Notes: a model not told the origin generated them from the sequence alone. Counted from the stretch's first letter, positions 6,480 to 25,211 are shown. The stretch is 64,000 nucleotides of DNA from Bacteroidaceae bacterium (GCA_045650605.1 JAZRRI010000036.1:18755-82754); one strand, 5' to 3'. Numbers and translations: made by a program.

Positions 6480-7721
6480 TTATTCTGTTTTATGGAACTT
6501 AAAATTTGTCGTGAGGTACATTACTGCACAAAGGAGCAGGAAGAATACCAGTGAACCCGTGAGGAGTGCATAGGTCTCCATCTGCAGCAGTATATAGTTG
6601 AGTATGTACACCAGGGCTACAAATCCGCCAAGCATGTATGCACTACGGTTCTTCAGGATGCCTTTATAGTAGAGCATCAGTGCGACGGTGGTCATTGATG
6701 CAGAAATTGTGTATGCCACACCAAAGGCGATGAACTCGGAGAATGCTATGAGCAACGAGTAGAACAACACGAGCGACAGGCCGATTACGGCATACTGGAT
6801 GGGGTTGATTTCCTTTCGTGTGAGGAACTCTACCAACATGCCGGCTACAAATACCAGAATTATGATGAGCATTCCATATTTGACAGAGCGCATTGACTGT
6901 TGGTAGGGGTTTGCCGGGTCTATAAACTTCACACCCATATCGTAGAAACTTGCACTGTTGTGTTCCGAAGCATTCCATGTTGCGTAGAATCCATCATCAC
7001 GCACCTCTCTGCTGTTAGGTAACAGCTCCCCCTGAAAGCTTGGGTGCGGATAGGCAGAACTCATGGCAAGCGATGTGTTTCCTTTGTCAGAGGGTCTGAA
7101 AAAGAGCGATTCTGTACCTTTCAGTTCAAATGAGAATGTAAAATCCACAGTGCTGCCGGCCTCTATATTATCCGGTATCAGGACTACTGCTTCATAATAG
7201 TCATTCTTTTTGTTGATGTCGAATGTGCGGTTGCCAAAAGTGAGCTGTGACGGATTACTGAAACCTTTCTGGTCGGTAATCTCAAAACAGAATAAGTTCT
7301 CTTTTGCTTTGATTGCTTTTTCAGTGACTGTAAACTCTCCCGATACAGTGACTTTAGAGTTGTACACAATCACATCATAAATGGAACGATGCAGAATATC
7401 TGTCTCTACATTAGCCTTGTAATCAAGCGTTTTACAGTTTTTGCTGTAATCCTTGGCGTAGGTTTCTTTCTCTACTTCACCTTTTACATTTGTAATCTCT
7501 TTCTCTTCAATGACATGCGAAATCAATTTAGGTGCGAACACTGTCTGCTGTTTGCCATATGAGAAGGCCACCTCTTGTATGACCTTATCCTTGGTCTCTT
7601 CACGCTCTTCAATGACTCCCGTTATCATAGCCAAAGGGATGAGCATCAACAGTGTAATCAGGGCTACAAAGCTAATCTTGATTGCAACTTGTCTTGCATT
7701 TGGTTTCGGGTCCTTTTCCAT
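6480..7721 (-). CDS. creD: cell envelope integrity protein CreD
   Basis: About 413 aa from the ATG at 7721 (MEKDPKPN). N-terminal TM, large periplasmic region and a C-terminal cluster of TMs, the typical CreD layout. The longer ORF-track start would run into the PP2C gene. Confidence 0.7.
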   Translation of the reverse strand: MEKDPKPNARQVAIKISFVALITLLMLIPLAMITGVIEEREETKDKVIQEVAFSYGKQQTVFAPKLISHVIEEKEITNVKGEVEKETYAKDYSKNCKTLDYKANVETDILHRSIYDVIVYNSKVTVSGEFTVTEKAIKAKENLFCFEITDQKGFSNPSQLTFGNRTFDINKKNDYYEAVVLIPDNIEAGSTVDFTFSFELKGTESLFFRPSDKGNTSLAMSSAYPHPSFQGELLPNSREVRDDGFYATWNASEHNSASFYDMGVKFIDPANPYQQSMRSVKYGMLIIILVFVAGMLVEFLTRKEINPIQYAVIGLSLVLFYSLLIAFSEFIAFGVAYTISASMTTVALMLYYKGILKNRSAYMLGGFVALVYILNYILLQMETYALLTGSLVFFLLLCAVMYLTTNFKFHKTE

Positions 7722-7818
7722 AGTAATTTTTTTGTTAAATGAATATTGATGTTTGTTTTTATTTGCTATTATAGAGAGTGCAGATGATGGAATTCTATCA
7801 GTGTCATCGATAATTTCA

Positions 7819-8502
7819 TTACATGACTTCATACAATATCCCACTGTAATTGTCGGTGGAGAATTTCTCGCACATGAACTTTATCACGTCGACAACATTC
7901 TCCAGCTTTTTGTTGTCTTGCAGGCGTGCTGTAAGTTTCTGTGGGGCCATGGCCTTGTACACACCATCGGTGCAAAGGAATATTCTGTCGCCTTTCTCCA
8001 CCTCGATGCAGGTGATGTCCGGGATTGCAACTTCCGGGTCCATTGAGAAGAAACAGCGTGTAACAATCTCTGTTCCCGGACGGGAGTGGTCGGTTGTCTG
8101 GTGTACAACCTCGCCATTGCGCAACAGGTAGCATCTGCTGTCGCCGCAATGTGCTATGGTTACCGTGTTATTCTCCACACTTGCCATTACGAGTGTTGTT
8201 CCCATCTCAATGGGACGTACCATTCTTGAACGGTAGTAGAGAGCTTCGCTTGCATGTGCAAACGCTGTCAATACCTTCTCTTCGCAATCACTCTTGCCGG
8301 GGTTATCCTCCCAGAAATTGCATACTGCATTGCACACAGTCTCGGCAGCAGCATCGCCCATTGCATGGCCGCCCATGCCGTCGCACACCACCAGCAGGCA
8401 GCGGTTCTCTTCGGGCATTTCAACAACACGGCATATATCCTGGTTTGCTATTCTCTTGCCGGTCTCGGAGAATATCGTATACATGTATTTTTGCTTTTCC
8501 AT
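7819..8502 (-). CDS. PP2C-family Ser/Thr protein phosphatase
   Basis: 227 aa. Motif LLVVCDGMGGHAMGDAAAE and a later CTDGV metal-binding motif. Confidence 0.85.
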   Translation of the reverse strand: MEKQKYMYTIFSETGKRIANQDICRVVEMPEENRCLLVVCDGMGGHAMGDAAAETVCNAVCNFWEDNPGKSDCEEKVLTAFAHASEALYYRSRMVRPIEMGTTLVMASVENNTVTIAHCGDSRCYLLRNGEVVHQTTDHSRPGTEIVTRCFFSMDPEVAIPDITCIEVEKGDRIFLCTDGVYKAMAPQKLTARLQDNKKLENVVDVIKFMCEKFSTDNYSGILYEVM

Positions 8503-8612: not shown

Positions 8613-8903
8613 TTACTCTTTCGTAATTTTGAATCCCAGTTTTGTTATAAGTTTTAGGGTTCCAAAGGCTGTGTCGCGGTCATATGCCTTCTCCACCTCG
8701 GGCAGCTCCTCGTAGGGCACCAGGCAAGGGTGGGTCTTCAAGGTGTCGTTGCGCTCCTCGCCATAGGTCCAGCCCTGCTCCATGCGGCTCTGCGCCCACA
8801 CGTCGTGTACGTTCTTTGCAATCTTTTCTACAAGTTCATCTAACTCTGCCGGCAACTGCACGTCATTTGTGTTCACCGGCTGCGGTACATAATTCTTTTT
8901 CAT
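8613..8903 (-). CDS. stand-alone RyR (ryanodine-receptor repeat) domain protein
   Basis: 96 aa. VHDVWAQSRMEQGWTYGEERNDTLKTHPCLVPYEELPEVEKAYDRDTA matches the RyR-domain signature. Close paralogue of the RyR segment in ORF 25212-26348. Confidence 0.8.
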   Translation of the reverse strand: MKKNYVPQPVNTNDVQLPAELDELVEKIAKNVHDVWAQSRMEQGWTYGEERNDTLKTHPCLVPYEELPEVEKAYDRDTAFGTLKLITKLGFKITKE

Positions 8904-8977: not shown

Positions 8978-9196
8978 TTATTCTGTCAAGTCAAGAAAAC
9001 CTACAATGTCGGTGTCTGTTATCTGCTTTTTGTGTTCTACAAATTCTCCGTTTGTAAGTCTTTGGAATGTTACATCGCCATTTTCATTTGCTTTGAATGC
9101 TACCTTGAACTCTTCACGATTCTTTATCTGTTTACCATCATATGCAGTAATGATGTCTCCTTTATTGAATACAGGATGTTGTGCATCGTCCTTTAT
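8978..9196 (-). pseudogene. PDZ-domain remainder, in frame with and directly downstream of the TIR ORF stop
   Basis: 72 sense codons follow the TAA at 9199-9197 in the same frame: IKDDAQHPVFNKGDIITAYDGKQIKNREEFKVAFKANENGDVTFQRLTNGEFVEHK. There is no start codon of its own. The PDZ pattern begins before the stop (YAGVIIY). Confidence 0.6.
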
Positions 9197-10909
9197 TTAA
9201 TAGATAATTACTCCTGCATATTGGCGTTTCCCTTTTGCCAGTTCGCGAAAGAACTTTTTTGCCGAAGCTACATATTCTTTGCTTTCGGGATGGTAGCTCT
9301 GATATACCATAAGCATTGAATCCATATCAGCATATGCTACGTCCGGAGTAATGGAAGATGTTGTATGTATATTCATTGACTTCATCTCCTGACGGTTCTC
9401 TACAAGTATTGCAAGGTATGTTCCCCACCTGCGTATCTTGCCCCATTTGTTCCATTGCTTGTCATCTTCTTCCAATGTGCATTTCTCTTTAAACTGTTCA
9501 TAAATCTGTACAATTTGATTATCAAGTTCAAGCAGGCCATATTTATATTTCAAACTCTTTACAACAACCTCTTCCGCCTTAACCTTTTCTTCGCGTAAAG
9601 CAAGTTCGTGTTGCATAGCTTCAAGTTGTGCAAAGTCTTCATGCATCTGCTTTTCAAATTGTGCAAAACCTTCATGCATTCGCTTTTCAAGCCTGTCATT
9701 CTCTTTTTGTAAATCTTCCAGTTCTGCATCGGTCTTTTCAAGAATACTGCTGTATCTTGAGTGAGCGTCATAGGCAAGTTTTGATTCAGTCTTCATCCTG
9801 CTCTCATAATATTCTTTGCTTTCATCAATCTTATAGAATAGGATAGGGAAGTGTAGCCACTCTTCGTTTATTTTGTTGTATAGCTCTCTAGAATATTTGG
9901 GGAAAGCTGACAATTCGCATAGAGTGGAGAGGTAGTATGCGTTTATAGAATGTTCTAAGGCTTCAAAAAGCACAGACACAAATCTGCGATTGGAAGTGTT
10001 TGGCTCAGTTACAGCTGTACGTATTATGTTCAATGTGTTTATATAATCGGTATAATACAATGTCGCAAGTGACGGAGATATGGATATGCTTTCAGCATTT
10101 ATCCCATGTAATGAGAGTAAAAAACTGTGATATGAATTAATATCCATTGGTACTGAATCGACTTGCCAAATCTGTCTTATATTTTGTTCTACCAGATCAA
10201 TACTTGACAACATCTCTTCTTGATAAGATTTGATACGCTCCGGTCTCTGCTCATAATTGAGCATGTTATTGAATGTCTCCCAACTCTGTTTCAGGTAGTC
10301 ATTCTCTGCTGCAATGATATGTACTTGGCTTGCGTCTATTGTAAGGCATGTTGCATATTTCTTGCATACATCGCGAGACAAAACCATGAATACAGCAAAA
10401 ATTATTGCAACCAATGCCAATAGAGAGGAAATTATTATAGATGAAATTTTTATAAGTTTCTTTATTGGCAGGTGACGTTTGCTAAGCAAATATCGTTTTT
10501 GCAGTTTCTCCATTGCCATGTCAAAGTATTCGACAGAACCGGCTGCAACAGCCTGGTAGTTGCACAGCTCTTCCATACCTTGCGGCATTGGATTTGGCCA
10601 TACAAAGCCATTGAGCATTACCGGTATAATGTTTTTTTTGTGACTCATTGCGCACAACACCTCTTTGCGCACCCAGTCTTCTTCATTGCTACACCGTTCG
10701 AGAGCATCAGGGGGTAATACAATAACAAAGTCACGACATCCTTCTATTACATTGAACAATTGTTCATTGAATGGTCCCGAGCGCATAGATTCGAGGTCAA
10801 AGAATACTCTGTATCCGGCCGATTTCAAGCGTGTCGCTATCAGGTTTGCTGTTTCGTAAGAACTGCGGCGGTAGCTTATAAAAATATCATAATTATGTTT
10901 CATCGTCAT
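9197..10909 (-). CDS. TIR domain - TM - helical/coiled-coil protein (C-terminal PDZ truncated by a stop)
   Basis: 570 aa. N-terminal TIR (YDIFISYRRSSYE...RVFFD...DWVRKEV), one TM (ISSIIISSLLALVAIIFAVFMVL) and a long helical C-terminal region with an 11-aa tandem repeat. Confidence 0.85.
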   Translation of the reverse strand: MTMKHNYDIFISYRRSSYETANLIATRLKSAGYRVFFDLESMRSGPFNEQLFNVIEGCRDFVIVLPPDALERCSNEEDWVRKEVLCAMSHKKNIIPVMLNGFVWPNPMPQGMEELCNYQAVAAGSVEYFDMAMEKLQKRYLLSKRHLPIKKLIKISSIIISSLLALVAIIFAVFMVLSRDVCKKYATCLTIDASQVHIIAAENDYLKQSWETFNNMLNYEQRPERIKSYQEEMLSSIDLVEQNIRQIWQVDSVPMDINSYHSFLLSLHGINAESISISPSLATLYYTDYINTLNIIRTAVTEPNTSNRRFVSVLFEALEHSINAYYLSTLCELSAFPKYSRELYNKINEEWLHFPILFYKIDESKEYYESRMKTESKLAYDAHSRYSSILEKTDAELEDLQKENDRLEKRMHEGFAQFEKQMHEDFAQLEAMQHELALREEKVKAEEVVVKSLKYKYGLLELDNQIVQIYEQFKEKCTLEEDDKQWNKWGKIRRWGTYLAILVENRQEMKSMNIHTTSSITPDVAYADMDSMLMVYQSYHPESKEYVASAKKFFRELAKGKRQYAGVIIY

Positions 10910-10948: not shown

Positions 10949-11674
10949 TTACAATTCCGTCATCTCTATGTTCTCGGTACTATCCCTTAAAATAAGTTCC
11001 TTGATTCTGCTACCTCCATACTTCCACATCTTGTGGCAGAATACCAGAAATACAATTGTTAGAATGCCACTGATGGCAGGTGTTACGTCTGTTGTGAATA
11101 GTATTGAATCATATAGTCCATGAACGATGATAGGTGCAACCAATATAAGAATCTTATTCTTCAATGGTGTCTTGGGATAGAATTTGGCAAGTGAATAATA
11201 GTATCCCATAAGTATGCCGAAACAGAAATGTCCGGGCACGGAGAATATGGCGCGGCTTATACCTACCGACAGATATGATTCTACATTAGAGAATAGATAC
11301 ATAATATTCTCCAATGCAGCGAAACCAAGCGAAATGCATACTGCATATACAATACCGTCCATTTTTTCGTCAAAGAATCTGTTTTTGCGCAGCACCAACC
11401 ATAATAGGAAAAACTTGGCAATCTCCTCGGGTATTGCTGCACCAAAAAAAGAGGTACTTATAGCTCCAAGGATGGATGCCGGTTCCATGGTATATAACCC
11501 AAGAGATTCCAACGGTGTGGATATACAAAGGGAGAGCGGCGCAGCCAACACCCCAACGAAAAATGTCTTGAGCAACTGTCCCACAGGCTCGGGCGAGTTC
11601 TTGTCCTTACGGTAGATGTAGAATCCAAGGATGGCTATCGGAAGGAGAGCTGTTAGGAGAATTGTATAGTCCAT
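10949..11674 (-). CDS. PrsW-family intramembrane glutamic protease
   Basis: 241 aa, polytopic. Motifs AAIPEEIAKFF, FAALENIMY and HGLYD. Confidence 0.8.
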   Translation of the reverse strand: MDYTILLTALLPIAILGFYIYRKDKNSPEPVGQLLKTFFVGVLAAPLSLCISTPLESLGLYTMEPASILGAISTSFFGAAIPEEIAKFFLLWLVLRKNRFFDEKMDGIVYAVCISLGFAALENIMYLFSNVESYLSVGISRAIFSVPGHFCFGILMGYYYSLAKFYPKTPLKNKILILVAPIIVHGLYDSILFTTDVTPAISGILTIVFLVFCHKMWKYGGSRIKELILRDSTENIEMTEL

Positions 11675-11678
11675 AGTT

Positions 11679-13133
11679 CTAATTATTTAAGAATTCTCTT
11701 TCGTAAATATCTTTAACTTTATTTATGGTTTCATCCGATAATCCAAATGAAGAATTCAATATATCCTCATATTCTAATGTAAAAAAACATTCTTTTCCAC
11801 TTATGCTCCCTCTGTAATTAAATATAATACCATATTGGTCGTTTTGCAATATTTTTTTATAATCTCCCGTAATACTTTTTAATGATTCTTCTTTTAGTAG
11901 ATTTAACAATGATGCAAATTCTTCAAAAGATACATGATTTTCATCTATGATATAATTATATTTCAAATATGGAGTGTCCTTTTTAATGTTAATTAGAGTT
12001 CGTGATTCATCTACCTTAATAGGGCACTTCATATTTATAATTTCTATAACATTATCAATATTTATCTCCAACATGTTGTCAGAAACATTATGGTTATATG
12101 GCTCTACATTATTTGTCTCGTTAATACTTTCACGTATATTTATTGCAATAGCAACAATAGCAAGAAGGATAATAGGGGCATATATGATTCCCATGATTAT
12201 CAAAAAAAAATTTCTTCGTTTCTTTAGTTTCTTTTTTTTCTTTAATTCCTCCGATTCTATACCTAAAGCTAATGAATAACCTTCTATATTATTTGGATAA
12301 GACTTCACATCAAAATCCTCTTTTAGATAGCTCATTACATAAATATCCTTATCCGATTTTTGATCAGCAGGAACTTTAGGGAATGATATTTTGTGGGTAA
12401 ATTGTTGTCGCACATTCTCATATTTCTGAATATCATCAATAATATAGACCGTCTTTGCCAACATTTTAAACGATTGTTCTATTTCCCAAATACAACTTTT
12501 CCTATCATTGACAAGAATGTATATAGTTTGAGACTTCTCCATCAATTCCAACACATCATTTTGCCAACTATCATCATTAAGATATACTCTTGTAGCGCCT
12601 CTTGGACTATTAACTTCTTTGGTCATTCCAACAGCACATATCGGGATGTTCTGCATTACAAGTGATGTGAATTCGTATTCAGAGAAACTGTCATAAGTTT
12701 TTTCAGAAACCACAGGGTCATGACCATAATCATCTTGTTCAAATCCTCTGAGGAACAAACAATATCTATTATTCTGTTCTAAGAAATCATGTTTAGTAGC
12801 TGTGGATATATTACCAACAGCTTTAATCGCAGCATTTTGTTTTCTCAAATAAATATACATTGCAACTCCTGTTAATCCTATATTGCGGATTAAATTCCCA
12901 ACATTTTGGGGATCTTCAAAATTTGTGATTACAATGGTTGTTACAACTTCAAAAATAGCATATAGAATTAACATTAAAATCAGCATTATAATTCTATTGC
13001 GCTTAAGTTTTTTTCGTATCTCTATTGCGATATTCGCATCTGTCGTTTCATTTAATAATTGAATATCATTCTTTTCCATAAGTTTAATGACAAATGGATA
13101 CAAAACAGCTACTATCAGGGCTACTATTATCAT
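11679..13133 (-). CDS. membrane protein with cytoplasmic TIR-like LRGF domain and C-terminal periplasmic domain (paralogue P1)
   Basis: 484 aa and very AT-rich. N-terminal TMs, then CLFLRGFEQDD...RVYLNDDSW...IYILVNDRKSCIWEIEQ, then a KKKKKLKKRRN-flanked TM and a ~150-aa C-terminal domain. Confidence 0.6.
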   Translation of the reverse strand: MIIVALIVAVLYPFVIKLMEKNDIQLLNETTDANIAIEIRKKLKRNRIIMLILMLILYAIFEVVTTIVITNFEDPQNVGNLIRNIGLTGVAMYIYLRKQNAAIKAVGNISTATKHDFLEQNNRYCLFLRGFEQDDYGHDPVVSEKTYDSFSEYEFTSLVMQNIPICAVGMTKEVNSPRGATRVYLNDDSWQNDVLELMEKSQTIYILVNDRKSCIWEIEQSFKMLAKTVYIIDDIQKYENVRQQFTHKISFPKVPADQKSDKDIYVMSYLKEDFDVKSYPNNIEGYSLALGIESEELKKKKKLKKRRNFFLIIMGIIYAPIILLAIVAIAINIRESINETNNVEPYNHNVSDNMLEINIDNVIEIINMKCPIKVDESRTLINIKKDTPYLKYNYIIDENHVSFEEFASLLNLLKEESLKSITGDYKKILQNDQYGIIFNYRGSISGKECFFTLEYEDILNSSFGLSDETINKVKDIYEREFLNN

Positions 13134-13172
13134 TGGTAAAATATTTAATTTGAATGTAATTCTATATTACTT

Positions 13173-13180
13173 CAAAATTA
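13173..13180 (-). promoter_or_regulatory. candidate -7 box (TAATTTTG) for the P1-PrsW-TIR block
   Basis: Minus-strand TAnnTTTG match 40 nt upstream of the ATG at 13133. Confidence 0.4.
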
Positions 13181-13521
13181 TAAACTTCTTTCATATCATT
13201 TGGCAGGTCAGCACAGCACGAGGTTCAATGCTGATAGGGCATATTCTTAATGTTACATCTCTTTGACTGAGTTGCGGATATGCTCTGAGCAACGCTCGAT
13301 CTTTTTCTTTGGCAACATAATCACTTGCCGCAGCATTTTTGTACTCAAAGCGTCATCCTCACGCACTGGCTTCCAAAATGCAGGGCTTAAGATAAAGTAC
13401 ATTGCCATCAAGAAGCGCAATCTGCATTAGCGTTCGCTGTGCATACCAATCATTTGGTTCTGCTTTCTTTGCATCTAATGCCACTTTTCTAAGTTTATCT
13501 TCCATGTTTTAATTAATAAAT

Positions 13522-15105
13522 TCATGATTTATCGCTGATTAGAAATCCATATACCGCATTTTTCAAACCAATTTCAGTATTAGAGTATGCCTTTACGATA
13601 GTTTGTCCGCCTTTTTGGTACACCATCATGTGATTATGAACTATTTCTTCCGATTTTAGGCAAGTAGGCAATTCTTCGCCCATTTTCTCTTTAACGATAT
13701 TTAGATTAGTGATATCATCAACATAATAAATTGTTTTATCCGAGAAAACGGTATTACATTGTCTTATTTCCCAAATGCAGTTGTCATTAGGATGAACTGA
13801 AACAAGAATGTATTTTGCCAATTCCATCAAAGTTCTTGCATCGCTCATCCAACTGTCATTATCCAAATATATGCGTTTAGTTCCTTCAGGACTTTCAAGT
13901 TCTTCAGGCAGTCCGACGCTATATGTTTGATAATATCGTTTCCACGCTTTTGCCAAACTCTTTTCGTTTAGAGTAAGCTGATTAGGATTTATCTCTTTTT
14001 CATAAGAATCAAAGTTTGTATTCCCTGGTTTAGCATTTGACACGGTATCTGCTATTTTCTCCATACTAGGAGTATAGTTATCCGTTATGAATCCCCTCAG
14101 ATATAGAATGAAGTTTCTCTCCTTACTCATGAACTTCTTCATGGTCATAAAATTCATTGGTAGAGACAGAGTAGAAAGCAAGTTCAGCAATAGTCCACCG
14201 CCGCTACACAAAATGGGAATGGTCATATATTTACTAACCTGATTTCCATGAACAAGAAGAATTGCCAATAATATGATTCCAATAATGGTGATAACAATGC
14301 GTAAGACAAATCTGACAACAGAATAGCCAATTCGTATATTTACAGATTTCTTTGCGGTATTTGTACGTGACATATTCTTGGCGAATAACACTTTCACACC
14401 AAATATTGCTGCTAGTGACAACACAAGGTAAAGCATAAAAAAACCAAGGCTCTTCAACATTTTTACCATGGGAGTTGACTCCTTTGTATCTTTGTACTTG
14501 GTGACAGATGTAATGTCGTTTACTTCTGAGTCATACGTCTCGAACGAATTATCCAAATCATTTACATCAGTTTCCTCATCCAAATCAAACAACTGCTCTA
14601 TGGTCATCGTTGATCTATGGAATTCCAAATCTATGGCATTGCTTTCATCGCCAAGAATAAACGAAATAGTGTCAGGGCTGTCATGTGTGACATAAATCAT
14701 CCTCACATCTTCGAAGTTGGCAAACATTGGCTTTACCGTATTCTCTATCTGCTTGATAATCTGCCCTTCTGAAACAGAAGTATTTTTTTCGTATGTAACG
14801 AACTTCAAGAGGCTAACCTTTAGTGACCTTTGGTTCAAACTGACAAAAAACAACGGACCAATTTTGTCATATTTTCCATCCATAGAGACATTCCAAACGC
14901 ATCTACCTACGCCAGCAATCTGGTTGTCTGTAACGAAACTCATAGACATGACGGAGTCGTTCTTGAAGTAATACTCTATTATGGCTTTTTCTGTTCCCTC
15001 TACCATCTGGTCCGTTTGCCATATACCAAACCAATCTGATTGGGCATGAAGATTAATGCTCATAAAAAAGGAAAGAGAAAAAAGAATTAAGAAAAACTTT
15101 TTCAT
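13522..15105 (-). CDS. membrane protein with N-terminal periplasmic domain and C-terminal TIR-like LRGF domain (paralogue P2)
   Basis: 527 aa. Signal peptide MKKFFLILFSLSFFMSINLHAQ, three TMs, then ILYLRGFITDN...RIYLDNDSW...YILVSVHPNDNCIWEIRQ. Confidence 0.6.
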   Translation of the reverse strand: MKKFFLILFSLSFFMSINLHAQSDWFGIWQTDQMVEGTEKAIIEYYFKNDSVMSMSFVTDNQIAGVGRCVWNVSMDGKYDKIGPLFFVSLNQRSLKVSLLKFVTYEKNTSVSEGQIIKQIENTVKPMFANFEDVRMIYVTHDSPDTISFILGDESNAIDLEFHRSTMTIEQLFDLDEETDVNDLDNSFETYDSEVNDITSVTKYKDTKESTPMVKMLKSLGFFMLYLVLSLAAIFGVKVLFAKNMSRTNTAKKSVNIRIGYSVVRFVLRIVITIIGIILLAILLVHGNQVSKYMTIPILCSGGGLLLNLLSTLSLPMNFMTMKKFMSKERNFILYLRGFITDNYTPSMEKIADTVSNAKPGNTNFDSYEKEINPNQLTLNEKSLAKAWKRYYQTYSVGLPEELESPEGTKRIYLDNDSWMSDARTLMELAKYILVSVHPNDNCIWEIRQCNTVFSDKTIYYVDDITNLNIVKEKMGEELPTCLKSEEIVHNHMMVYQKGGQTIVKAYSNTEIGLKNAVYGFLISDKS

Positions 15106-15116
15106 ATGAACTTTTT

Positions 15117-16332
15117 TTATTAGTGATGCGTTAACTTTGCATCATTCTATTTTAAGTTGTTAATATATAATTATTTATATTCGTTCTTTGATTTTTTGAT
15201 TTGAATTGAGTTTATAATTTTGCCGGATAAACACTGCGAAATTATGAATAAAGGCAAGTTTGTATTCTCTCAAGTCATTGATTTCCTCCCTCGTTATGAG
15301 TTTGACAAGATTGTCAAGGTATACAATGGAGATTACCGATATAGACATTTGACAAGTTACAATCATTTGCTTCATTTGATATTCGGTCAACTTACGGGAT
15401 GTTATTCTCTTCGCGACATTTGTTTATGTCTAAAAGCTCACGAAAAATGGCTCTATCATCTTGGCTTTCGTCAAACAGTGAACGAATCGTCATTATCCAG
15501 AGCAGGAGAGAACCGCGATTATCGCATATTTGAAGAATTGGGTTCTGTACTAATTCAAATGGCTAGACCTTTATACTTCAAAGAAAAGATTCCCGATGTA
15601 TGGTTGCCCGAACAAGAAATTTTCGCTTTGGATTCAATAACTATATCTTGCAGTATAAAGCTGATGTCTTGGGCTCTTGGGAAGTATGAACGAGGAGCTG
15701 TGAAAATGCATACGCTTTTAGATTTGCGTGGCAACATTCATTTCAAAGCATTACACCGTATTCATACTAACAATGCCTATTTCATTACCAGAGCTAAGAA
15801 GAATATGAAGTACGAGGTTGTTGAAACCAACTACAATATATATGAGGAACAGGATTAAGAGGAGATTTTATTATAAACCTTACGGGGTATAACCCCCAAA
15901 AACTCTATCCTGAATCTTTTAGGCTTGTCAAATATTATGACTCCGATAATGAAGAATAATTAGAATTTATCACCAATTATCTTGATTTTGATGCCTTGGG
16001 CATCGCAAATCTTTATAGGAATAGGTGGCAAATAGAAACCTTCTTCAAATGGATTAAGGGCAACCTTGCTATTAAGACGCTTTGGGGGCACTCTGAAAAT
16101 GCAGTGAAGATACACCTGTGGGTTGCGATTTGCACATACCTTTGGTTGCTATCATCAAAGCAAAATGCAACAGTCAATACTCTATTACAGAAGTTGAAAT
16201 GTTACTCAGAGTATCCGCCTTAGAGCGAATCAATATAAGAGAATTGCTTACAAAGGCCATTGAAAAATTACTCAATCAAAACCAAAATGTCAAAGAACTA
16301 AATTTATTTGAATTTTTACGCATCAGTAATAA
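15117..16332 (+). mobile_element. decayed IS4-family insertion sequence with terminal inverted repeats
   Basis: IRs ttattagtgatgcgttaa (15117-15134) and ttacgcatcagtaataa (16316-16332) match at 15/17 positions. They enclose broken transposase ORFs. The element fills the gap between the P2 start (15105) and the STAND gene stop (16348). Confidence 0.7.
15244..16223 (+). pseudogene. IS4-family (DUF4372 + DDE) transposase, frameshifted and internally deleted
   Basis: N-terminus MNKGKFVFSQVIDFLPRYEFDKIV...HLTSYNHLL and C-terminus NLYRNRWQIETFFKWIKGNL are in different frames. The central catalytic segment after LLDLRGNI looks deleted. Confidence 0.75.
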
Positions 16333-16347
16333 TGTTTCATCATAGTT

Positions 16348-19300
16348 TTAATTTACACATGCATCTTTATTTGTGTATAACTGATGATATTTTTTATATA
16401 AAGAATATTCCTGTTCGTTTATAAATCGTTGATAAATTGTCCAATAATCTAATTCATTGGGTATTAGTTCTATGACTCTCATTGTTGTGAGATTTAAGCA
16501 TAACAATATATCAAACCCATTAAAACTGTCATAATTTAATTTTTCTCCACCTAATATTACGCCATGCCATATTCGTCCTTTATCTAAACATTCAATAAAA
16601 ACGGCTTTATTTTTCAGTTCTCCACAATATATTTCAGGTAATAAATAATTAGCAGAGACATTTGTATCACCATTTTCATCACAAATAGAAGGCTCCCAAT
16701 CATTTTTTGTAATTGTATAGTATCTAAACCCAGGTAAAGGGAATTTATATCTTGATAAATAAGCAACACCATTCCCATTAGGTTCATTTGTTTTTGCATT
16801 TATAAAATAGTATGCTTTTAGTGGACCCAGCCATTGTTCTATTGTATTTCCATATATGTCTACTCGGTTTTCAGTGGTGGTTTTTAGTATTGTATCTGAA
16901 TTATATTCTCTTTCTACAACATAATTTCTATTTGGGAAATGTTCTGTTACTTTAATTTTATGTAACTTATCTTTATTATAGTAAATCACACTATCCGTTT
17001 CTTGAAAGTATATGGAATCTTTATCAAGTCCATTATCAGCATAAACATATTCTATCCTATGCCATCTATTATAATCATCTTCATATTCATATTCATATGG
17101 TGTTTCGCCATCTAATTCATAATAGACATCTTCAATAACTCTGTTTTTGTTATCATATGTCATTTTATTAATGTATTCGTTATATATTCTCCCTCTAAAT
17201 TTTCTAGTTTCTATATTGTCCACTTTTTCGTAATTAAAAATGCCTATGGTATCTACCCCCTCGGTTTTTATTTCATCCTGAAAAACACATTCATTTTTTT
17301 TATTATATCTACTATTTCGTATTGTGGTTTTTCCATTTGCATTCTCTGAATAGTACAATATATTACCATTAGTGTCAAATCTTACTTCTATTAAATTTGT
17401 TAGCTCGTCTTTAACATTGTAATATCGATATTCTAAAGAATTTTTTGCATCATCATATAGTGTTCTGCGTATATGGAAATTGATAGAATCTGGGCAAACA
17501 GGTCCATCCTCATTCCAAAGCGACACCATTATTTCACGACCATTATTGTCGTATTCATACATTGCACGAGAATATCCATCTTTAACTGCTTTTTCTCGTC
17601 CAAATTCATCAACAGACAAAGTCTCTACTATACGATAACCATCATATTTGCAAATCTGCCCACAGTTTCCTGCATGGTCAATCATTCTTTTACCATACAT
17701 GTTCAACGAAGACGTAGAAATGCATTGGCCAAAATCGTCATACTCATAATAAGTTTGATATGCTCCATGGGCATTGGTAGATGGGTTACCATCCAAATCA
17801 AAATATTCAACGAGCATATCACGTCCATTATTATCATACGTAATTCTAATAAATCTGTAACCTGCTTTTAGAAGTTCTATGGGCAGACCTTGTCCATCGA
17901 CATAACTTCCTATAATACATTTACCCTTGAAACTTTGATTTTGTAGCTCTTTTCGAGCTCTCATATCTTGTGTGTTTTTTGAATTTTGTTCATCTTGTGA
18001 GGTCGTTTGAGGTGCATTGTAATTGAACGCATATATCAAGTTGTCATACTTGTCATAAGCTCGTTCTTGTATAACTGAATCCTTATAAACAGGGTCTTTG
18101 ATAAACTTCCACTTACAAACCATTTGCAGTTTACCTTTAATATCATCTGCCAATATACTATCCTCCATTTGTCCAGTAACAATATAAGGAGAGATGTTGT
18201 GACTTGTTGATAGATTGTTAAATCTATCTCTACATTCCATTGAGGTGTATGTTTTAGTAATGAGACCTTTTTTCTTTAGAACAAAATGGTATGGTCGGAA
18301 TGATGCACTTTTTTTACTTAAAGATTCTATACCTACAAAACGTCCCCATTGTTTTGTAATGCTTGCATATCTTTTAGAAATAGGAATGAGATATCCTATC
18401 ACATAGAATATTATACACATTAAAAGAATGATTATTCCTAGTAGAGTAATACTTCTTTGTCTTCGTAAATCTTTTAATTTTTTATTATGATTTTTCTTCT
18501 CGGCAGCTATTCTTCTTTCCTCCTTATTTTTTTCTACAACTGGGCATAATATGTCATGTACATATTCTATGCGAAGATCGCCGGCGTAATTAAATTGCCT
18601 GAGAATTTTTTTCTTATTACAGAGAATATCTAATTCCAGCTCCGAAATATTGCCATCATTTATGGCATCATATACCGTAATATTATCTCTACGCCCTTGA
18701 CCGTTCAGGAGCATATCTTCCAAATACTCAATTGTAGAATCAGAAATGTCTGATAAGGCATCATTATAGAAGTCTGATATAATTTCTCCGCCTTTCTGTT
18801 CTACAAGTTCTTTTGTAATGGTCTTTCCTTCTTTGGTTTCGTAAAGGCGGTTGAGATAAAGAGATAGTACCGCAGAGTCTACCTCTATTTCGGGTACTCC
18901 ATCAATTTTAAAATCCTTCTTTCCTGTAATTTTTTCTATAATTAGTTTGGCGACTGATTCATCGATAAGTTCCGGTACTGGGCGTAATATAATTTGAGCC
19001 GCCTGTTCCTCATTGATAGGGCGTAAACCGTATCTATTCTGTTTTAGTGATGGTATTGCGGCAGAATAGTATTCAAACTCCGAAAGAAAATCCTCTCTTA
19101 TTGTAAAAACGAAATGGATATCATTATCTGTTACATATTCGGGCAAACTATTCTCAACACCCAAATTTAAATCATCAAATATATTCTCAAGATCACTCTC
19201 TTCTCCTACTATTATCTCTTCTTGGGTATCTGATGAGATTTCAACTTTTTGTTGAAGTTCATCAGGCATAATATCATTAAGCAAATCTGCTAAATGAGTA

Positions 19301-19842
19301 AAAAAGTTTTTCTTCTTTTGGACATCATCCTGCAATGTAAATATTTCCTCAAATTGATCGAAAATTATTAATAATTTTAGACGATCTCCATTGGCATTAT
19401 GAAATGTATGTCTGTGGAAATATTCATAAAAACTTTCAGCTTCAGTATTCTTGCAGGGAATGACCTCTCTAATCAACGATTGGGCATCATTAAGGGCATG
19501 GTCTCCATTTGTAATGGAAACATCTGTTCCAAGTTCACCTGTTAGAGAATGGAGAATCGCATTTAATATAGCTTGATTAATTTGGTGTAGATAAGAATGC
19601 TCCTCCTTATGAGATAATCTTATAAGAACCGGTAAATAGCCATTCCTTCGTGCGGCGGGTAAAATACCTGCATTAAGGATAGAAGATTTACCAATACCAC
19701 TTTTTCCATACAATAAAGTATCAGTGTCATTTAATACACATTGAGACAAATCTCTAATGTCATCATCTCGACCATATAAAATTTCTCCTTCTTTATATGA
19801 TTCAAGTCCTAACCACGGATTCTTTCGTACAAACTCTTCCAT
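16348..19842 (-). CDS. transmembrane STAND-type P-loop NTPase with C-terminal YD (RHS-like) repeats
   Basis: 1164 aa. NPWLGLESYKEGEILYGRDDD, Walker A LYGKSGIGKSSILNAG and Walker B LLIIFDQFEEIF. One TM (ITLLGIIILLMCIIFYVIGYLIPI), then repeats such as ITYDNNGRDMLVEYFDLDGNP, YYEYDDFGQ and MYEYDNNGRE. Confidence 0.8.
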   Translation of the reverse strand: MEEFVRKNPWLGLESYKEGEILYGRDDDIRDLSQCVLNDTDTLLYGKSGIGKSSILNAGILPAARRNGYLPVLIRLSHKEEHSYLHQINQAILNAILHSLTGELGTDVSITNGDHALNDAQSLIREVIPCKNTEAESFYEYFHRHTFHNANGDRLKLLIIFDQFEEIFTLQDDVQKKKNFFTHLADLLNDIMPDELQQKVEISSDTQEEIIVGEESDLENIFDDLNLGVENSLPEYVTDNDIHFVFTIREDFLSEFEYYSAAIPSLKQNRYGLRPINEEQAAQIILRPVPELIDESVAKLIIEKITGKKDFKIDGVPEIEVDSAVLSLYLNRLYETKEGKTITKELVEQKGGEIISDFYNDALSDISDSTIEYLEDMLLNGQGRRDNITVYDAINDGNISELELDILCNKKKILRQFNYAGDLRIEYVHDILCPVVEKNKEERRIAAEKKNHNKKLKDLRRQRSITLLGIIILLMCIIFYVIGYLIPISKRYASITKQWGRFVGIESLSKKSASFRPYHFVLKKKGLITKTYTSMECRDRFNNLSTSHNISPYIVTGQMEDSILADDIKGKLQMVCKWKFIKDPVYKDSVIQERAYDKYDNLIYAFNYNAPQTTSQDEQNSKNTQDMRARKELQNQSFKGKCIIGSYVDGQGLPIELLKAGYRFIRITYDNNGRDMLVEYFDLDGNPSTNAHGAYQTYYEYDDFGQCISTSSLNMYGKRMIDHAGNCGQICKYDGYRIVETLSVDEFGREKAVKDGYSRAMYEYDNNGREIMVSLWNEDGPVCPDSINFHIRRTLYDDAKNSLEYRYYNVKDELTNLIEVRFDTNGNILYYSENANGKTTIRNSRYNKKNECVFQDEIKTEGVDTIGIFNYEKVDNIETRKFRGRIYNEYINKMTYDNKNRVIEDVYYELDGETPYEYEYEDDYNRWHRIEYVYADNGLDKDSIYFQETDSVIYYNKDKLHKIKVTEHFPNRNYVVEREYNSDTILKTTTENRVDIYGNTIEQWLGPLKAYYFINAKTNEPNGNGVAYLSRYKFPLPGFRYYTITKNDWEPSICDENGDTNVSANYLLPEIYCGELKNKAVFIECLDKGRIWHGVILGGEKLNYDSFNGFDILLCLNLTTMRVIELIPNELDYWTIYQRFINEQEYSLYKKYHQLYTNKDACVN

Positions 19843-19846
19843 ATCC

Positions 19847-21211
19847 TTAATCTTGATTCATTTTATGAATAATCTTTTCTGCTACGATTTCAATACCATC
19901 TTCAGTTGAGTAGAAAATAGCATTGTGCTGTTGCATTCTTTCCGGGATAGCAGCTTTATAGAAATCAAAATTGCTATCCGCCAATGGTATAATATATGTG
20001 CGCCCCATACTTATAGCGACCTCTATTGCTGTATCCCATTCATTTCTATAAACATGTGACTCTCGTTTCTCTTTTTCGATATTAGGAGTTAATATGGGAA
20101 CGAAATATTTAGCTGTTTTAATTGCTTTTCGAATTTCATCCATAAAAAGCCCACCATCTGTAAGATTGTATTTGTCATACCAGACTCGTTTCCCTTGAGC
20201 AGTTAAGGCTTTATACAGTTGTTCTGCAACTTGTGTGTCCGAGCGAGAATATGAGATAAATACATCCATATTCTCTTCAGGCTTGTTGAATTTGGTGGCT
20301 TCATTTTCCTTCAACTTCTTGTCTAAGCGGACTAAAATTTGTTCAATCACATCGGAAGTATTTTGCTTCGTGAAAGTTTCAGTACGTTCCAAGAAGTTAA
20401 TTAATGACTCATCCAATGTGTCATAGGCCAACATTCCGTGACCTAAATCTGGTTTTCGCATTGAATACCAAATAAATCTAAACAACCAATCACTGTATGT
20501 GTTGCCTAACATTAATAGATATTTATCTTTAAGTTCGTTGCATAGATTTTTCGGGCGCGCTTTGTTGTCGTTCGAAAGCCAAGAAGACACGAAATCTAAT
20601 AAATCAATATCAGTCAAGACGTATTTATGAGCACCGGCACCAACCTTTCCAAACATATAATATATTGTAGGTTTCCTCAAGTCGGCTCCATTTTTTATAT
20701 CACTATTTTCAGAAGGATTGTTATTAAACTTCATAACCCTCAACTCGTCCTTCCAAATATTTTGCATAGCCTGTTCTATTACAGGAGTAAAACTTGTCGT
20801 GATTATAAACGGGAAATGCCTAATAGACAATAGTCTGCGTAAACGTTCCGATGCCGGAAAGCGTTTAGCTGCAAAAATCTTGTCAACTTGATAATATATG
20901 TTATCAAGTTTAAAATTGAATTTATTTTTATATTCTGGGGTATATATTAGTTCTGAAAAACTATTAATCTGTTTATTAACTCCAAAGTTTTTAGCAAGTC
21001 CATCTATGATGACTTTATGCAAATTAGAACTATTGTCAATTAACAAATCTGCACCAATAACAGGGATAACATTACCATCTATTATTTGCTGTATCAGTTT
21101 ATCCCATAGAGGCTCGTCATTATTGTTGTCAAAGATGTTTGAATCAATGATATCATCGAACGAAAAATCCATCATCTCTTTATTTGGTGTATCTTGACTA
21201 AGCTTTTCCAT
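19847..21211 (-). CDS. SIR2-like domain - TIR domain fusion protein
   Basis: 454 aa. SIR2_2-like motifs GNVIPVIGADLL, FPFIITTSFTPVIEQA, YVLTDIDLLDF and LMLGNTYSDW. C-terminal TIR DVFISYSRSDTQVAEQLY...VWYD...YRNEW. Its stop lies 4 nt before the STAND gene start. Confidence 0.75.
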   Translation of the reverse strand: MEKLSQDTPNKEMMDFSFDDIIDSNIFDNNNDEPLWDKLIQQIIDGNVIPVIGADLLIDNSSNLHKVIIDGLAKNFGVNKQINSFSELIYTPEYKNKFNFKLDNIYYQVDKIFAAKRFPASERLRRLLSIRHFPFIITTSFTPVIEQAMQNIWKDELRVMKFNNNPSENSDIKNGADLRKPTIYYMFGKVGAGAHKYVLTDIDLLDFVSSWLSNDNKARPKNLCNELKDKYLLMLGNTYSDWLFRFIWYSMRKPDLGHGMLAYDTLDESLINFLERTETFTKQNTSDVIEQILVRLDKKLKENEATKFNKPEENMDVFISYSRSDTQVAEQLYKALTAQGKRVWYDKYNLTDGGLFMDEIRKAIKTAKYFVPILTPNIEKEKRESHVYRNEWDTAIEVAISMGRTYIIPLADSNFDFYKAAIPERMQQHNAIFYSTEDGIEIVAEKIIHKMNQD

Positions 21212-21244
21212 ATATGTATATTTTGATTATTCCTTAAACATAAA

Positions 21245-22216
21245 TTATATCAAAGACTCTTCAATTGTGCTTAGGAACTTTTCCAATGCTACAATATGCT
21301 TACCCGTGTAGAACTTTAATTCTCCATTTATCAACAGCCCATTCCCTATCATCCATTCTTCATTCTTGGCAAAGAATTGAAGTAGAATCATATGGAAGGC
21401 GTGTTCTGCTGTAATGTTTTCTACATTGCGGTAGTAGAAATCCGTTGGAACAAGACGATTGTATTCCTTATCCCATTCCTCATTAGTCTCGCAATCGGCG
21501 ATTGATGATTTTAATTCTTGAGCATATTGTGATAGACCGTTGAAGTTTAATTGCAAACGCTCAAAAGTTGCATCAATGGCAATGCTACCGTATACTTCTT
21601 TAAGTTTAGCGTAGAGCATATTCTCGCAAGACACGCGTACATATTCCATCAATGCACTACGATACTCAATAATATCATCTATATTGTTTCCTTGAATGCG
21701 TTCGAGTAAGGTGTTTTCCTTTGCTTTATTGAACTTTTCAAGTATATCGTTTTCCGAAATAGGGGCAGTATAGAGATTCCCATAACTTCTTGATGAATTT
21801 TTTATTCTTTCAACAAGTAGTTTAATCGCTTCCTGCATATTCACAATACCATTACTCCAAGTTTGAAGTTCTATGCTTCTCTCTACCTTAGAGATGACGG
21901 CATTTGTAATTTCATCTGTTGAATGGCTATCCAAATAGTTTTGGTATTCAGCAATCATTCTATCTTTAAGGTCATAACCCAACTCTTGCGACAGTTCATT
22001 GGATAGTTTACCCTCAACTTTTACTTTCTCAAATGAAAGATGTTTATTACAAAGAGATTCTATCTCTTGCTTACCCTGACCTATCAACCAATTAAGGTCA
22101 ATTACGCCATATAACTTTTCTGCTATTTCTTTAGCAGGAAGAGAGTCTTCCTGCAGCAAACTATACTGCAAGAAGTCTCTATTAAATCTGTTTTTCAGAT
22201 ATTCCTTTTTATCCAT
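21245..22216 (-). CDS. hypothetical protein (helical)
   Basis: 323-aa ORF with ATG start, tightly packed in the array. No family recognised. Confidence 0.5.
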   Translation of the reverse strand: MDKKEYLKNRFNRDFLQYSLLQEDSLPAKEIAEKLYGVIDLNWLIGQGKQEIESLCNKHLSFEKVKVEGKLSNELSQELGYDLKDRMIAEYQNYLDSHSTDEITNAVISKVERSIELQTWSNGIVNMQEAIKLLVERIKNSSRSYGNLYTAPISENDILEKFNKAKENTLLERIQGNNIDDIIEYRSALMEYVRVSCENMLYAKLKEVYGSIAIDATFERLQLNFNGLSQYAQELKSSIADCETNEEWDKEYNRLVPTDFYYRNVENITAEHAFHMILLQFFAKNEEWMIGNGLLINGELKFYTGKHIVALEKFLSTIEESLI

Positions 22217-22218
22217 AA

Positions 22219-22725
22219 TTATAGAGGTCTACCACAGCTTGAGCAGAAGTTTGCAGATTCTGCATTCTGAGTACCACAGCCAGTACAGAACTTGTGTCCC
22301 GTTGCCGGTGTGGTCTCTATCGTGTTGCTATTATTTGCAGCAATTACACCCTCTGCAATTTTCAATGCCTTATCATCAAGCTTTGCTTGCTCTACCATAC
22401 CCCAAATCTGAGTAATGAGAACCGGCCAGAAGAAGAGCATAGAGATTACAGTAGGAATTGCCTGCTGTCCCCAGATACCCACACCTGCTTCAAAGTTGAT
22501 ATTGCTGCCTTGGGGAAGCAAAGTAACCTTCAATGCTGTTTTCATACCCAATACAGCTTTGAATACACCGCCTTTAGTGATAGAAATATCATAGCCACCG
22601 CTGCTCAAAGCGTCCATAGACACTTCGTAGCCATCGTTCTGAAACTCCTCCTGAATACGGTTTGCAATAGTAGGTATCAAAGATGTTGAACCGTATAATA
22701 TCTTTTTAGTGCTAAAAGTTGCCAT
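22219..22725 (-). CDS. hypothetical protein with hydrophobic segment and C-terminal zinc ribbon
   Basis: 168 aa. C-terminus CTGCGTQNAESANFCSSCGRPL. 2-nt gap to the next gene. Confidence 0.55.
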   Translation of the reverse strand: MATFSTKKILYGSTSLIPTIANRIQEEFQNDGYEVSMDALSSGGYDISITKGGVFKAVLGMKTALKVTLLPQGSNINFEAGVGIWGQQAIPTVISMLFFWPVLITQIWGMVEQAKLDDKALKIAEGVIAANNSNTIETTPATGHKFCTGCGTQNAESANFCSSCGRPL

Positions 22726-22730
22726 AGTTC

Positions 22731-22988
22731 TTATTTGTTAATGTTTTGAATTGAATGAAAGTTGTACACTGCGTACAACACGCTTGTCTCTACAAGCAGA
22801 CTCTTTATCTCTTCAACCTGCTCTTTGCTGTATTTTCCCTCCATATCGTGAAGCATTGCTACAACCTTGTCAGACTGTGCTTTAATCTCCTCTTCGGTGA
22901 TTACTCCATCTTCCATAATATTTTTGAAAGATGCATTATTGACGACCATTTCGTCAATGTTCAGGATTCCTTCTTCGTTAAAAAACAT
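22731..22988 (-). CDS. small acidic hypothetical protein
   Basis: 85 aa, ATG start, 5-nt gap to the downstream gene. Confidence 0.45.
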   Translation of the reverse strand: MFFNEEGILNIDEMVVNNASFKNIMEDGVITEEEIKAQSDKVVAMLHDMEGKYSKEQVEEIKSLLVETSVLYAVYNFHSIQNINK

Positions 22989-23024
22989 AACTTTTTGATT
23001 TAATGATTATTTAATAATTGGGTA

Positions 23025-23243
23025 TTACATATCTGGACCTTTAGAAAATTCGTGTTTACAGTTCAAACAAATGTAATACACACTAGGACATACAGCTCTT
23101 CCAGCAGCTCTGGAAGGTCCTTGCGGATAGCGTGTGACAAACGATGATGTAAAAAACGTTACAGCAGCTGCACCCCATGCCAGAGCCCTTTTTCCAGGAT
23201 TTGTCGTAATTGTTCTTTCTGAACCACATTTTGGGCATTTCAT
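23025..23243 (-). CDS. small zinc-ribbon protein
   Basis: 72 aa. MKCPKCGSE...CLNCKHEF gives two CxxC pairs flanking a hydrophobic segment. Confidence 0.5.
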   Translation of the reverse strand: MKCPKCGSERTITTNPGKRALAWGAAAVTFFTSSFVTRYPQGPSRAAGRAVCPSVYYICLNCKHEFSKGPDM

Positions 23244-23258
23244 AGTATTTGATTTAGT

Positions 23259-24137
23259 TTATAATTTGGTGCCACAATGTTTGCAATATGCCCAATCTGC
23301 ACATACTGCCTTGTTGCATTTAGGACATTTCTTCCCCGATGTTTGAGTTTTCAGATTCTGCATCAAATTTTTATATTGTGTACTTTTCCCCCATGTGAGA
23401 ATTTCACGTACACGTACTGCGCTGAATGGGTGAGTCATACCAATGGTAACAGCAAGCTGCAATGTTTTATTCCATAGACCATCATTTTTTATTTGGTCAT
23501 ACTTGTCGGCTTGTAAAGCCCATTCCTGCATGTTGATTTTATTTGTAATGGATTTGGGTCCACCTGCCAATCTGGCCATTGAACGTGCAACTACTTCGGG
23601 AGAAGTAATAACGCTACCACACCTATCACAAGACAACTCTGCTTTACGACTCCAATAGAGAAGTGCATATTCAATTGGTTTTGCTATTGAACCTAAAATA
23701 CCAAGAGCGTCAAGACCCATTTTAAGATAGTCGGCTACCATCTTGTAAACAACATGGCGACACAAAATATGACCGCACTCGTGAGCCAAAATAGCATCAA
23801 GTTCTTCGTCATCCATCATCTCCACAAGTCCGGATGTTACCACAATAAAAACTCTTGTGTCTCCTGATGTGTATGCATTAGGCATTGGATCCATTTCCAA
23901 ATAGAACTCCGGCTCTTTGATGCCTAAGCGTTCACAAATAGGAGGAAGATGCCTGTAAAGTTCGGGTAACTGGGTCGGGGATAAACGAATGGTTGATGCC
24001 ATGTTCAAACCGTACTTTAACTTCTCATATCCCAACTCCAAGACTTTTTTTGCAATCGCAGGAAAACCCGGAATGCTTTCTAACTGACGCAACGCAGCTG
24101 CGTCTTCTGGATGAATAAATTCTGCAGGTTTAATCAT
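23259..24137 (-). CDS. M48-family zinc metallopeptidase with C-terminal zinc ribbon
   Basis: 292 aa. HECGHILCRH (HExxH) and C-terminus CPKCNKAVCADWAYCKHCGTKL. No obvious TM. Confidence 0.8.
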   Translation of the reverse strand: MIKPAEFIHPEDAAALRQLESIPGFPAIAKKVLELGYEKLKYGLNMASTIRLSPTQLPELYRHLPPICERLGIKEPEFYLEMDPMPNAYTSGDTRVFIVVTSGLVEMMDDEELDAILAHECGHILCRHVVYKMVADYLKMGLDALGILGSIAKPIEYALLYWSRKAELSCDRCGSVITSPEVVARSMARLAGGPKSITNKINMQEWALQADKYDQIKNDGLWNKTLQLAVTIGMTHPFSAVRVREILTWGKSTQYKNLMQNLKTQTSGKKCPKCNKAVCADWAYCKHCGTKL

Positions 24138-24143
24138 AGATAC

Positions 24144-24653: not shown

Positions 24654-24672
24654 AAGATTATAGTTTAAAAGG

Positions 24673-25188: not shown

Positions 25189-25211
25189 GTTTTTTCTTAA
25201 TAGTTACTCTG

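Follow-up and report, generated by a model that had tools for sequence, protein, structure and literature searches.

The TIR domain of human SARM1 and C. elegans TIR-1 is recognised by its box 1 motif (DIFISYRR), its BB-loop region (FFD-E-x-x-x-G-x-F) and a catalytic glutamate within DWV-x-KE, and a 2020 survey of TIR domains found no bacterial homologues of SARM1 (PMC7075850). PDZ domains of the HtrA/DegS/DegP type, for their part, are extracytoplasmic and belong to proteases. In Thoeris-type signalling, the products of TIR enzymes can be intercepted by phage: two 2026 preprints describe phage RyR-domain proteins, RyDEP and RyR Tad, that bind or cleave TIR-made 2'/3' cyclic ADP-ribose (2'/3'cADPR) (PMC13232231; 10.64898/2026.06.04.730250). 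Pseudogene formation in bacterial accessory and defence genes leaves a single premature stop, intact orthologues and a recognisable remnant in a variable island, all of which recur at the locus described here. This locus lies in a 64,000-nucleotide stretch of a Bacteroidaceae bacterium genome (GCA_045650605.1 JAZRRI010000036.1:18755-82754; the window, in whose coordinates all positions are given), where the gene for a membrane TIR protein is interrupted by an in-frame TAA close to its 3' end. We consider it probable that this TAA is real and arose very recently, as a nonsense mutation in this lineage alone.

The premature stop and its intact relatives

The interrupted gene comprises the following elements.

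9200..10909 (9197..10909 with the stop), minus strand: truncated open reading frame (ORF) of 570 codons, covering the TIR domain, one transmembrane segment, a helical region and the first half-strand of a PDZ-like domain (ORF call)
9197..9199, minus strand: premature TAA stop in the window sequence; ancestrally GCA (Ala), at residue 572 of the orthologue P0002
8981-9196, minus strand: 72-codon remnant, presumably untranslated, stop-free and in the same frame as the ORF
8978..8980, minus strand: original full-length stop, TAA, which aligns with the stop of the two closest DNA relatives, L001 and L010

Read from its first ATG, the ORF runs from 10909 to 9200 and ends in KGKRQYAGVIIY (...YAGVIIY) ahead of the TAA at 9199-9197. 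The frame continues past this stop from IKDDAQHPVFNKGD to DIVGFLDLTE, reaching the TAA at 8980-8978 after 72 codons; the complete tail reads IKDDAQHPVFNKGDIITAYDGKQIKNREEFKVAFKANENGDVTFQRLTNGEFVEHKKQITDTDIVGFLDLTE, and the peptide IKDDAQHPVFNK would mark translation beyond the stop. An earlier note on this DNA had given the 570-codon ORF, the 72-codon extension and their coordinates exactly, and one amendment concerns the start: because the orthologues and the database copy of the window protein (P0001, 568 aa) begin at the second methionine (MKHNYD, 10903), the true start is probably the ATG at 10903 and the product 568 aa. As that note had also stated, the downstream piece has no start codon of its own. 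Between 9196 and 8981 there is no in-frame ATG or GTG, the sole TTG falls four codons before the tail ends, and an ORF scan lists no minus-strand frame of at least 40 aa in the tail region; re-initiation to yield a separate PDZ protein was rejected on the codon content of the tail.

The open frame is not evidence by itself. Stop-free stretches of at least 64 codons follow 10 of the 51 long frames in the window, mostly where the next gene happens to share the frame, and 72 such codons are not significant against that background. Since long open frames after stops are this common, the case rests on homology, and only the comparison with orthologues gave this one a meaning—a caution that applies to similar observations.

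A search of a protein collection with the fused translation, that is, the ORF read across the TAA at 9199-9197, returned 733 homologues from Bacteroidales. Among the best 120 of the 733, which include P0001 itself, the other 119 are 607-655 aa long and cover 96-100% of the fused query. Every one of these 119 has a sense codon at the stop position (A and G predominate, with one T and one V) and goes on for about 72 further residues to the conserved ...DIVGFLDLTE end, and the tail of the window gene can be aligned over its whole length with the C-terminus of each full-length member listed. The closest cluster, represented by P0002 (85% identical), has 18 members, and the 15 of them that are listed are all 643-644 aa. 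The truncated product, by comparison, occurs once among some 15 billion proteins, as P0001 from one 88-kb NCBI contig. The orthologue comparison that the earlier note had called for therefore returns a sense codon and a tail in all 119 cases.

The same picture holds in DNA. The codon at the stop site is GCA in the four closest relatives, which come from independent samples: L001, the Logan contig that encodes P0002; L010, a Joint Genome Institute (JGI) metagenome contig picked up by a pattern with an NNN wildcard; L002; and L007, a metagenome-assembled genome (MAG) of a Bacteroidaceae member. L007 is, by its sequence, the same species as the window or a sister species, since the flanking PrsW, RyR, PP2C and CreD genes agree with those of the window at 94-97% of nucleotides (87-99% in protein). 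What the window has to itself is a tandem GC-to-TA substitution, on the minus strand G to T at 9199 and C to A at 9198. Around it, L001 and L010 match the window for about 30 nt on the 5' side (TATGCAGGAGTAATTATCTAT) and for more than 140 nt on the 3' side (ATAAAGGACGATGCACAACATCC...), and L002 and L007 are more diverged. Searches for a second TAA allele, which the 31-mers GGAGTAATTATCTATTAAATAAAGGACGATG and ...TATGCAATA... would mark in raw reads, were negative: an exact look-up of the truncated protein gave no second contig, a scan of species-representative genomes gave no copy of the window's own allele, and a scan of JGI metagenomes with NNN at the stop codon gave one contig, L010, which reads GCA rather than TAA.

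The tail itself indicates how young the change would be. Over all 72 residues it is 97% identical to the tails of L001 and L010, 85% to that of L002 and 68% to that of L007, and more distant loci reach 41-59% over 71 residues. It contains neither a frameshift nor a second stop. Against L001 it has four synonymous and two non-synonymous differences, a per-site ratio of non-synonymous to synonymous change (pN/pS) of 0.12, and the intact tails of L001 and L002 compare at 0.14; one of the two replacements also occurs in L002 and L007, the trace of a recombination breakpoint some 165 nt beyond the stop on its 3' side. Because the tail is as constrained as it is between intact alleles, relaxed selection has left no trace in it, and the stop would be either very young or an artefact. 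The locus departs from ordinary nonsense pseudogenes in these two respects, the tandem two-base change and the remnant free of any decay, so that the event is extremely recent if it is real.

Protein architecture and what the stop removes

The domains affected, and those left intact, are as follows.

10499..10891, minus strand: SARM1-type TIR domain, residues 7-137, with the catalytic Glu in DWVRKEV (phmmer against PDB, Foldseek, conservation)
10382..10456, minus strand: single predicted transmembrane helix, approximately residues 152-176 (hydropathy and flanking charge; part of a continuous helix, 147-215, in the P0002 model)
9224..10381, minus strand: all-helical region after the membrane segment, probably extracytoplasmic, with a length-variable coiled-coil stretch (P0002 model)
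8981..9223, minus strand: PDZ-like C-terminal domain split by the stop, fused residues 563-643 (PDZ_2, family tail profile, models, Foldseek)

The C-terminal domain is where the stop falls. Pfam PDZ_2 matches fused residues 563-616, on both sides of the stop at residue 571, with 26.3 bits for the 98-residue C-terminal fragment and 20.5 bits for the full fused protein, each under the Pfam cut-off of 27. Among family tails, 13 of 25 match PDZ_2 and 10 of 25 match PDZ_6 at E<0.01. A profile built from the family tails retrieves PDZ-containing chains from the PDB almost exclusively, including DegQ, DegP, Lmo2051/Lin2157 and RseP homologues (best E 5e-7), the sole match of another kind being a weak one to 4zv1 (AncQR, E 0.022), and these alignments begin at a Y-A-G-V motif upstream of the stop. 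In the AlphaFold2 model of P0002, which has a predicted local distance difference test (pLDDT) score of 84, the PDZ-like part comprises strands 568-573, 587-591, 613-620, 623-630 and 637-641 together with helix 599-608, at a local pLDDT of about 88-91, and Ala572, the residue at the stop site, lies inside the strand 568-573. A model of the tail alone agrees with it, and Foldseek matches that model almost exclusively to PDZ domains at its top ranks, with moderate scores (E about 5e-3, template-modelling (TM) score 0.5-0.6). The stop thus cuts the first strand and removes the four strands and the helix that follow it.

The likeness to the PDZ domains of HtrA/DegS/DegP, RseP and Lmo2051-type proteins extends from these best profile and fold matches to the GD-I-I and helix arrangement and to the Y-A-G-V directly before the first strand. 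In 67 homologues G567 of this motif is invariant and Y565 is conserved in at least 90%; we take the motif to be the equivalent of the carboxylate-binding loop (x-hydrophobic-G-hydrophobic) of DegS/DegP. Like the HtrA-type domains, the window domain would also be extracytoplasmic. It differs from them in its sub-threshold profile score (26.3 against 27 bits), in its middling TM scores and in being joined to a TIR effector rather than a protease. With these qualifications, profiles and models support a divergent PDZ-like module cut in its first strand. The earlier note had placed the TAA inside the first strand of a PDZ domain and suggested a profile search on the fused translation, and both have been borne out: the sub-threshold PDZ_2 match spans the stop, and PDZ similarity is found across the junction. 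Nor do the orthologues share the termination point, the other observation that would have spoken for an uninterrupted gene; they run past it.

The N-terminal domain is a TIR domain of SARM1 type. On the window protein Pfam TIR_2 reaches 54.7 bits, its cut-off being 28, and in a phmmer search of the PDB the best matches by a wide margin are human SARM1 and C. elegans TIR-1 (E 5e-27), the only other match being a weak one to the TIR domain of IL-1RAcP (1.8e-5). Foldseek superposes the P0002 model on the SARM1 TIR domain with 38% identity over about 135 residues, TM scores of 0.84-0.90 and a root-mean-square deviation of about 1.7 A. All three SARM1/TIR-1 hallmarks named above are present, the catalytic glutamate (SARM1 E642) among them: DWVRKEV aligns with DWVHKEI, and W77 and E81 in P0002 numbering are invariant in the 67 homologues. 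Sequence and model together identify the domain as a SARM1-type, predicted NADase domain, and a family of SARM1-like TIR proteins in Bacteroidales appears to contradict the 2020 survey (PMC7075850). The arrangement around it is unlike that of SARM1, for the TIR domain here is N-terminal and is followed by the membrane helix, the helical region and the PDZ-like domain, with no ARM or SAM domains.

There is one hydrophobic segment only, and its N-terminal flank is rich in K and R, which implies a cytoplasmic TIR domain (N-in) and would put about 465 C-terminal residues outside the cytoplasm, the PDZ-like domain probably in the periplasm. The P0002 model is helical over residues 147-559, with a pLDDT mostly above 85 that is low at 400-470; after the membrane segment, residues 177-560 are modelled with confidence except in the coiled-coil stretch. 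The length of this coiled-coil part differs among family members, whose proteins span 607-655 aa. In the window allele (9600-9700, minus strand) it contains an in-frame near-repeat, MHEGFAQFEK / MHEDFAQLEA, in place of the ARADTISAVMQSNTRKD of L001, the closest allele, and an in-frame two-codon insertion gives KYKYG against KDD in L001.

Competing explanations of the stop

If the stop is what we take it to be, a tandem GC-to-TA change turned the Ala codon GCA into TAA and truncated the protein within its first PDZ-like strand. The intact protein would consist of a cytoplasmic N-terminal SARM1-type TIR NADase, a membrane helix, a presumably extracytoplasmic helical region and a PDZ-like domain that would serve as the input or regulatory end. 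The mutant product of 568-570 aa would keep the TIR domain, the membrane helix and the helical region and lose what follows the cut strand. Because the PDZ-like module is the likely input end, the truncated allele would most likely be non-responsive, a loss of function en route to a pseudogene, and its 72-codon tail would be an untranslated remnant too young to have decayed. Such a loss fits a dispensable gene of conflict or defence that turns over fast within a variable island rich in TIR genes; since islands of this kind turn over quickly, the loss of one member is unsurprising. Of the explanations offered in the earlier note, this one, a recent nonsense mutation or variant allele, had been named first, and the sense codon in all listed relatives together with the intact tail strongly favours it.

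Several observations sit less comfortably with this explanation. The TAA allele is known from one assembly only. By our own arithmetic, five differences in the 285-nt L001-like segment would include an adjacent pair with a chance of about 0.07, which is mildly unusual, and neither intermediate of a stepwise route, Ser (TCA) or Glu (GAA), occurs at the site among the homologues. The adjacency suggests one multinucleotide event, a two-step route through Ser or Glu, or a consensus artefact. Removal of a regulatory domain could, moreover, deregulate the TIR domain rather than silence it. Separately, a templated origin of the doublet was considered: a near-repeat 30 nt downstream, TATTCAATAAAGGAG, would account for the G-to-T change and leaves C-to-A unexplained, and we find it unconvincing.

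The strongest competitor, which we nevertheless think unlikely, is that sequencing, consensus calling or assembly introduced the stop, the organism carrying GCA and an intact gene of 641-643 aa. That the truncated protein occurs once, on a single contig, and that its tail shows no decay at all would fit an error, and two adjacent mismatches in a segment otherwise about 98% identical could be a local consensus error or a captured minor variant. Yet short-read consensus assemblies do not typically err by a clean dinucleotide substitution with no indel, the site is neither a homopolymer nor a repeat junction, and none of the other flanking genes that were compared with L007 is truncated. A chimeric assembly at the stop was also considered and rejected: the allele is indeed a mosaic of L001-like and L007-like segments, but these meet about 165 nt away from the stop, on its 3' side.

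Considerably less credible is a selected functional variant, in which a TIR-membrane-helical protein without its PDZ-like module would act as a constitutively active or deregulated enzyme, or as a decoy, and the gene would not be dead. The truncated ORF keeps the TIR domain with its catalytic glutamate, the membrane helix and the helical domain whole, mosaicism and diversification mark the family, and the doublet could reflect selection for a stop. The family, however, offers no natural precedent: none of the 119 listed homologues is a full-length member lacking the PDZ-like domain, and the only other tail-less copy, at locus L008, is decayed and has lost the TIR N-terminus too. The cut also falls in mid-strand rather than at a domain boundary, so that, going by the model, an unpaired hydrophobic end would remain, and an NADase that is always active would presumably be toxic.

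Programmed readthrough or recoding of the TAA, proposed in the earlier note as a source of a short TIR protein beside a full-length TIR-PDZ protein, is the least probable account and is largely refuted by the comparative data: beyond an open downstream frame that encodes the remainder of a real domain it has no support, none of the 119 listed homologues and none of the four closest relatives in DNA has the stop, and L001 and L010 carry the same downstream sequence beside a sense codon, so no dedicated readthrough signal has evolved there. UAA is the least leaky stop codon in bacteria. In the window TAA is the standard and commonest terminator of a normal code, ending 36 of the 51 long frames, the gene's own original end included, and the 64 kb contain no tRNA gene of any kind, hence no suppressor tRNA; an alternative code or a suppressor was rejected on the same grounds.

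As a nonsense mutation, the stop is an ordinary event and of little weight in itself, one more accessory gene in decay, and the appropriate annotation for the locus is a truncated allele or pseudogene rather than a recoding event. Independent decay in the family is on record at L008 (1842-3302, Bacteroidales MAG JAZUST010000142), where the copy has neither the TIR N-terminus nor the PDZ tail: it starts inside the TIR domain without a DIFISYRR box, and its sequence becomes unrelated right after YHPESKDYVA.

The RyR neighbour and the surrounding island

The disabled gene holds greater interest than its stop, as a member of a large uncharacterised Bacteroidales family with a TIR domain 38% identical to that of human SARM1 and a consistent link to a RyR-domain gene. 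In the window this partner lies directly downstream.

8613..8903, minus strand: 96-aa RyR-domain gene (PF02026, 127 bits), on the same strand as the full-length TIR gene and separated from it by a 74-nt gap

A RyR-domain ORF occurs within 8 kb of the TIR gene in 10 of the 11 distinct related loci with enough flanking sequence, directly downstream in most; the link was noted in the window and in L003, L007, L010, L011 and L014-L018. At L011 the downstream RyR gene is called as 50 aa (8063-8215), possibly a truncated remnant, and that locus also carries a TPR protein gene followed by a ThsB-type TIR gene, as well as a CreD gene.

The window RyR protein is close to B. thetaiotaomicron 3NRT, solved as a 'putative ryanodine receptor', and to the Repeat12 domain of animal RyR. 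Its His33, Trp36, His58 and Asp75 have, by our own count, the spacing (+3, +25, +42) of RyDEP H75, W78, H100 and D117, so that the ligand residues of RyDEP appear conserved. By analogy with Thoeris-type signalling and the phage RyDEP and RyR Tad proteins, where a TIR enzyme likewise meets a PF02026 protein, the two genes may form a host TIR-RyR signalling pair. The differences from both precedents are plain: the window RyR protein is encoded by the host beside a TIR gene rather than by a phage as counter-defence, ligand binding is known from the phage RyR homologues only, and, unlike Thoeris, the window matches no PADLOC defence-system model, PADLOC recognising its TIR domain alone.

It is tempting to go further, if tentatively, and picture an undescribed, envelope-sensing, Thoeris-like module of Bacteroidales. 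A membrane-bound SARM1-type TIR protein with an extracytoplasmic helical and PDZ-like sensor would produce a cADPR-type signal, and host RyR partners, some standalone and some fused to C39-like peptidases, would bind, buffer or hydrolyse it; the window allele would then be a natural sensor knock-out. We found no description in the literature of host TIR-RyR pairs or of a TIR protein with a membrane helix and a PDZ domain. If the idea is right, the animal SARM1 TIR domain and RyR Repeat12 would have their closest bacterial relatives in the two parts of the module, a hint of a shared bacterial origin for the animal cADPR-RyR connection, and a host pair would provide a directly testable bacterial model for the long-debated link between cADPR and the ryanodine receptor. 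The TIR-RyR pairing is the more interesting lead than the stop and deserves separate follow-up.

The TIR gene itself is a patchwork. Compared with L001, its TIR part is about 68% identical, its middle about 95% and its 3' end about 98%, and against L007 the central TIR gene falls to 43% amino-acid identity between conserved flanks. The sequence marks it as a mosaic, hypervariable allele set between conserved neighbours; the island around it contains further TIR, SIR2-TIR and STAND genes, and genes of this sort are often lost. The closely related L007 locus lacks 13.5 kb of the window (11663-25212), a segment that looks like a variable defence or conflict island and contains, up to the gene that bounds it, the following.

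11679-13133 and 13522-15105: two large membrane proteins with no Pfam match above threshold
16348-19842: nSTAND1 NTPase
19847-21211: SIR2-TIR protein
23259-24137: M48 peptidase
24673-25188: small ThsB-like TIR protein
25212-26357: Peptidase_C39_2-RyR fusion gene, bounding the segment

Here the small TIR gene abuts the fusion gene, a second TIR-RyR adjacency in the window. The first pair is flanked on the minus strand (6480-8502 and 10949-11674) by genes for a PrsW-family intramembrane protease, a PP2C phosphatase and a CreD inner-membrane protein. PrsW also lies near the TIR gene in L002, L004, L007, L016 and L017, and CreD in L007 and L011, neighbours that hint at an envelope-related context.

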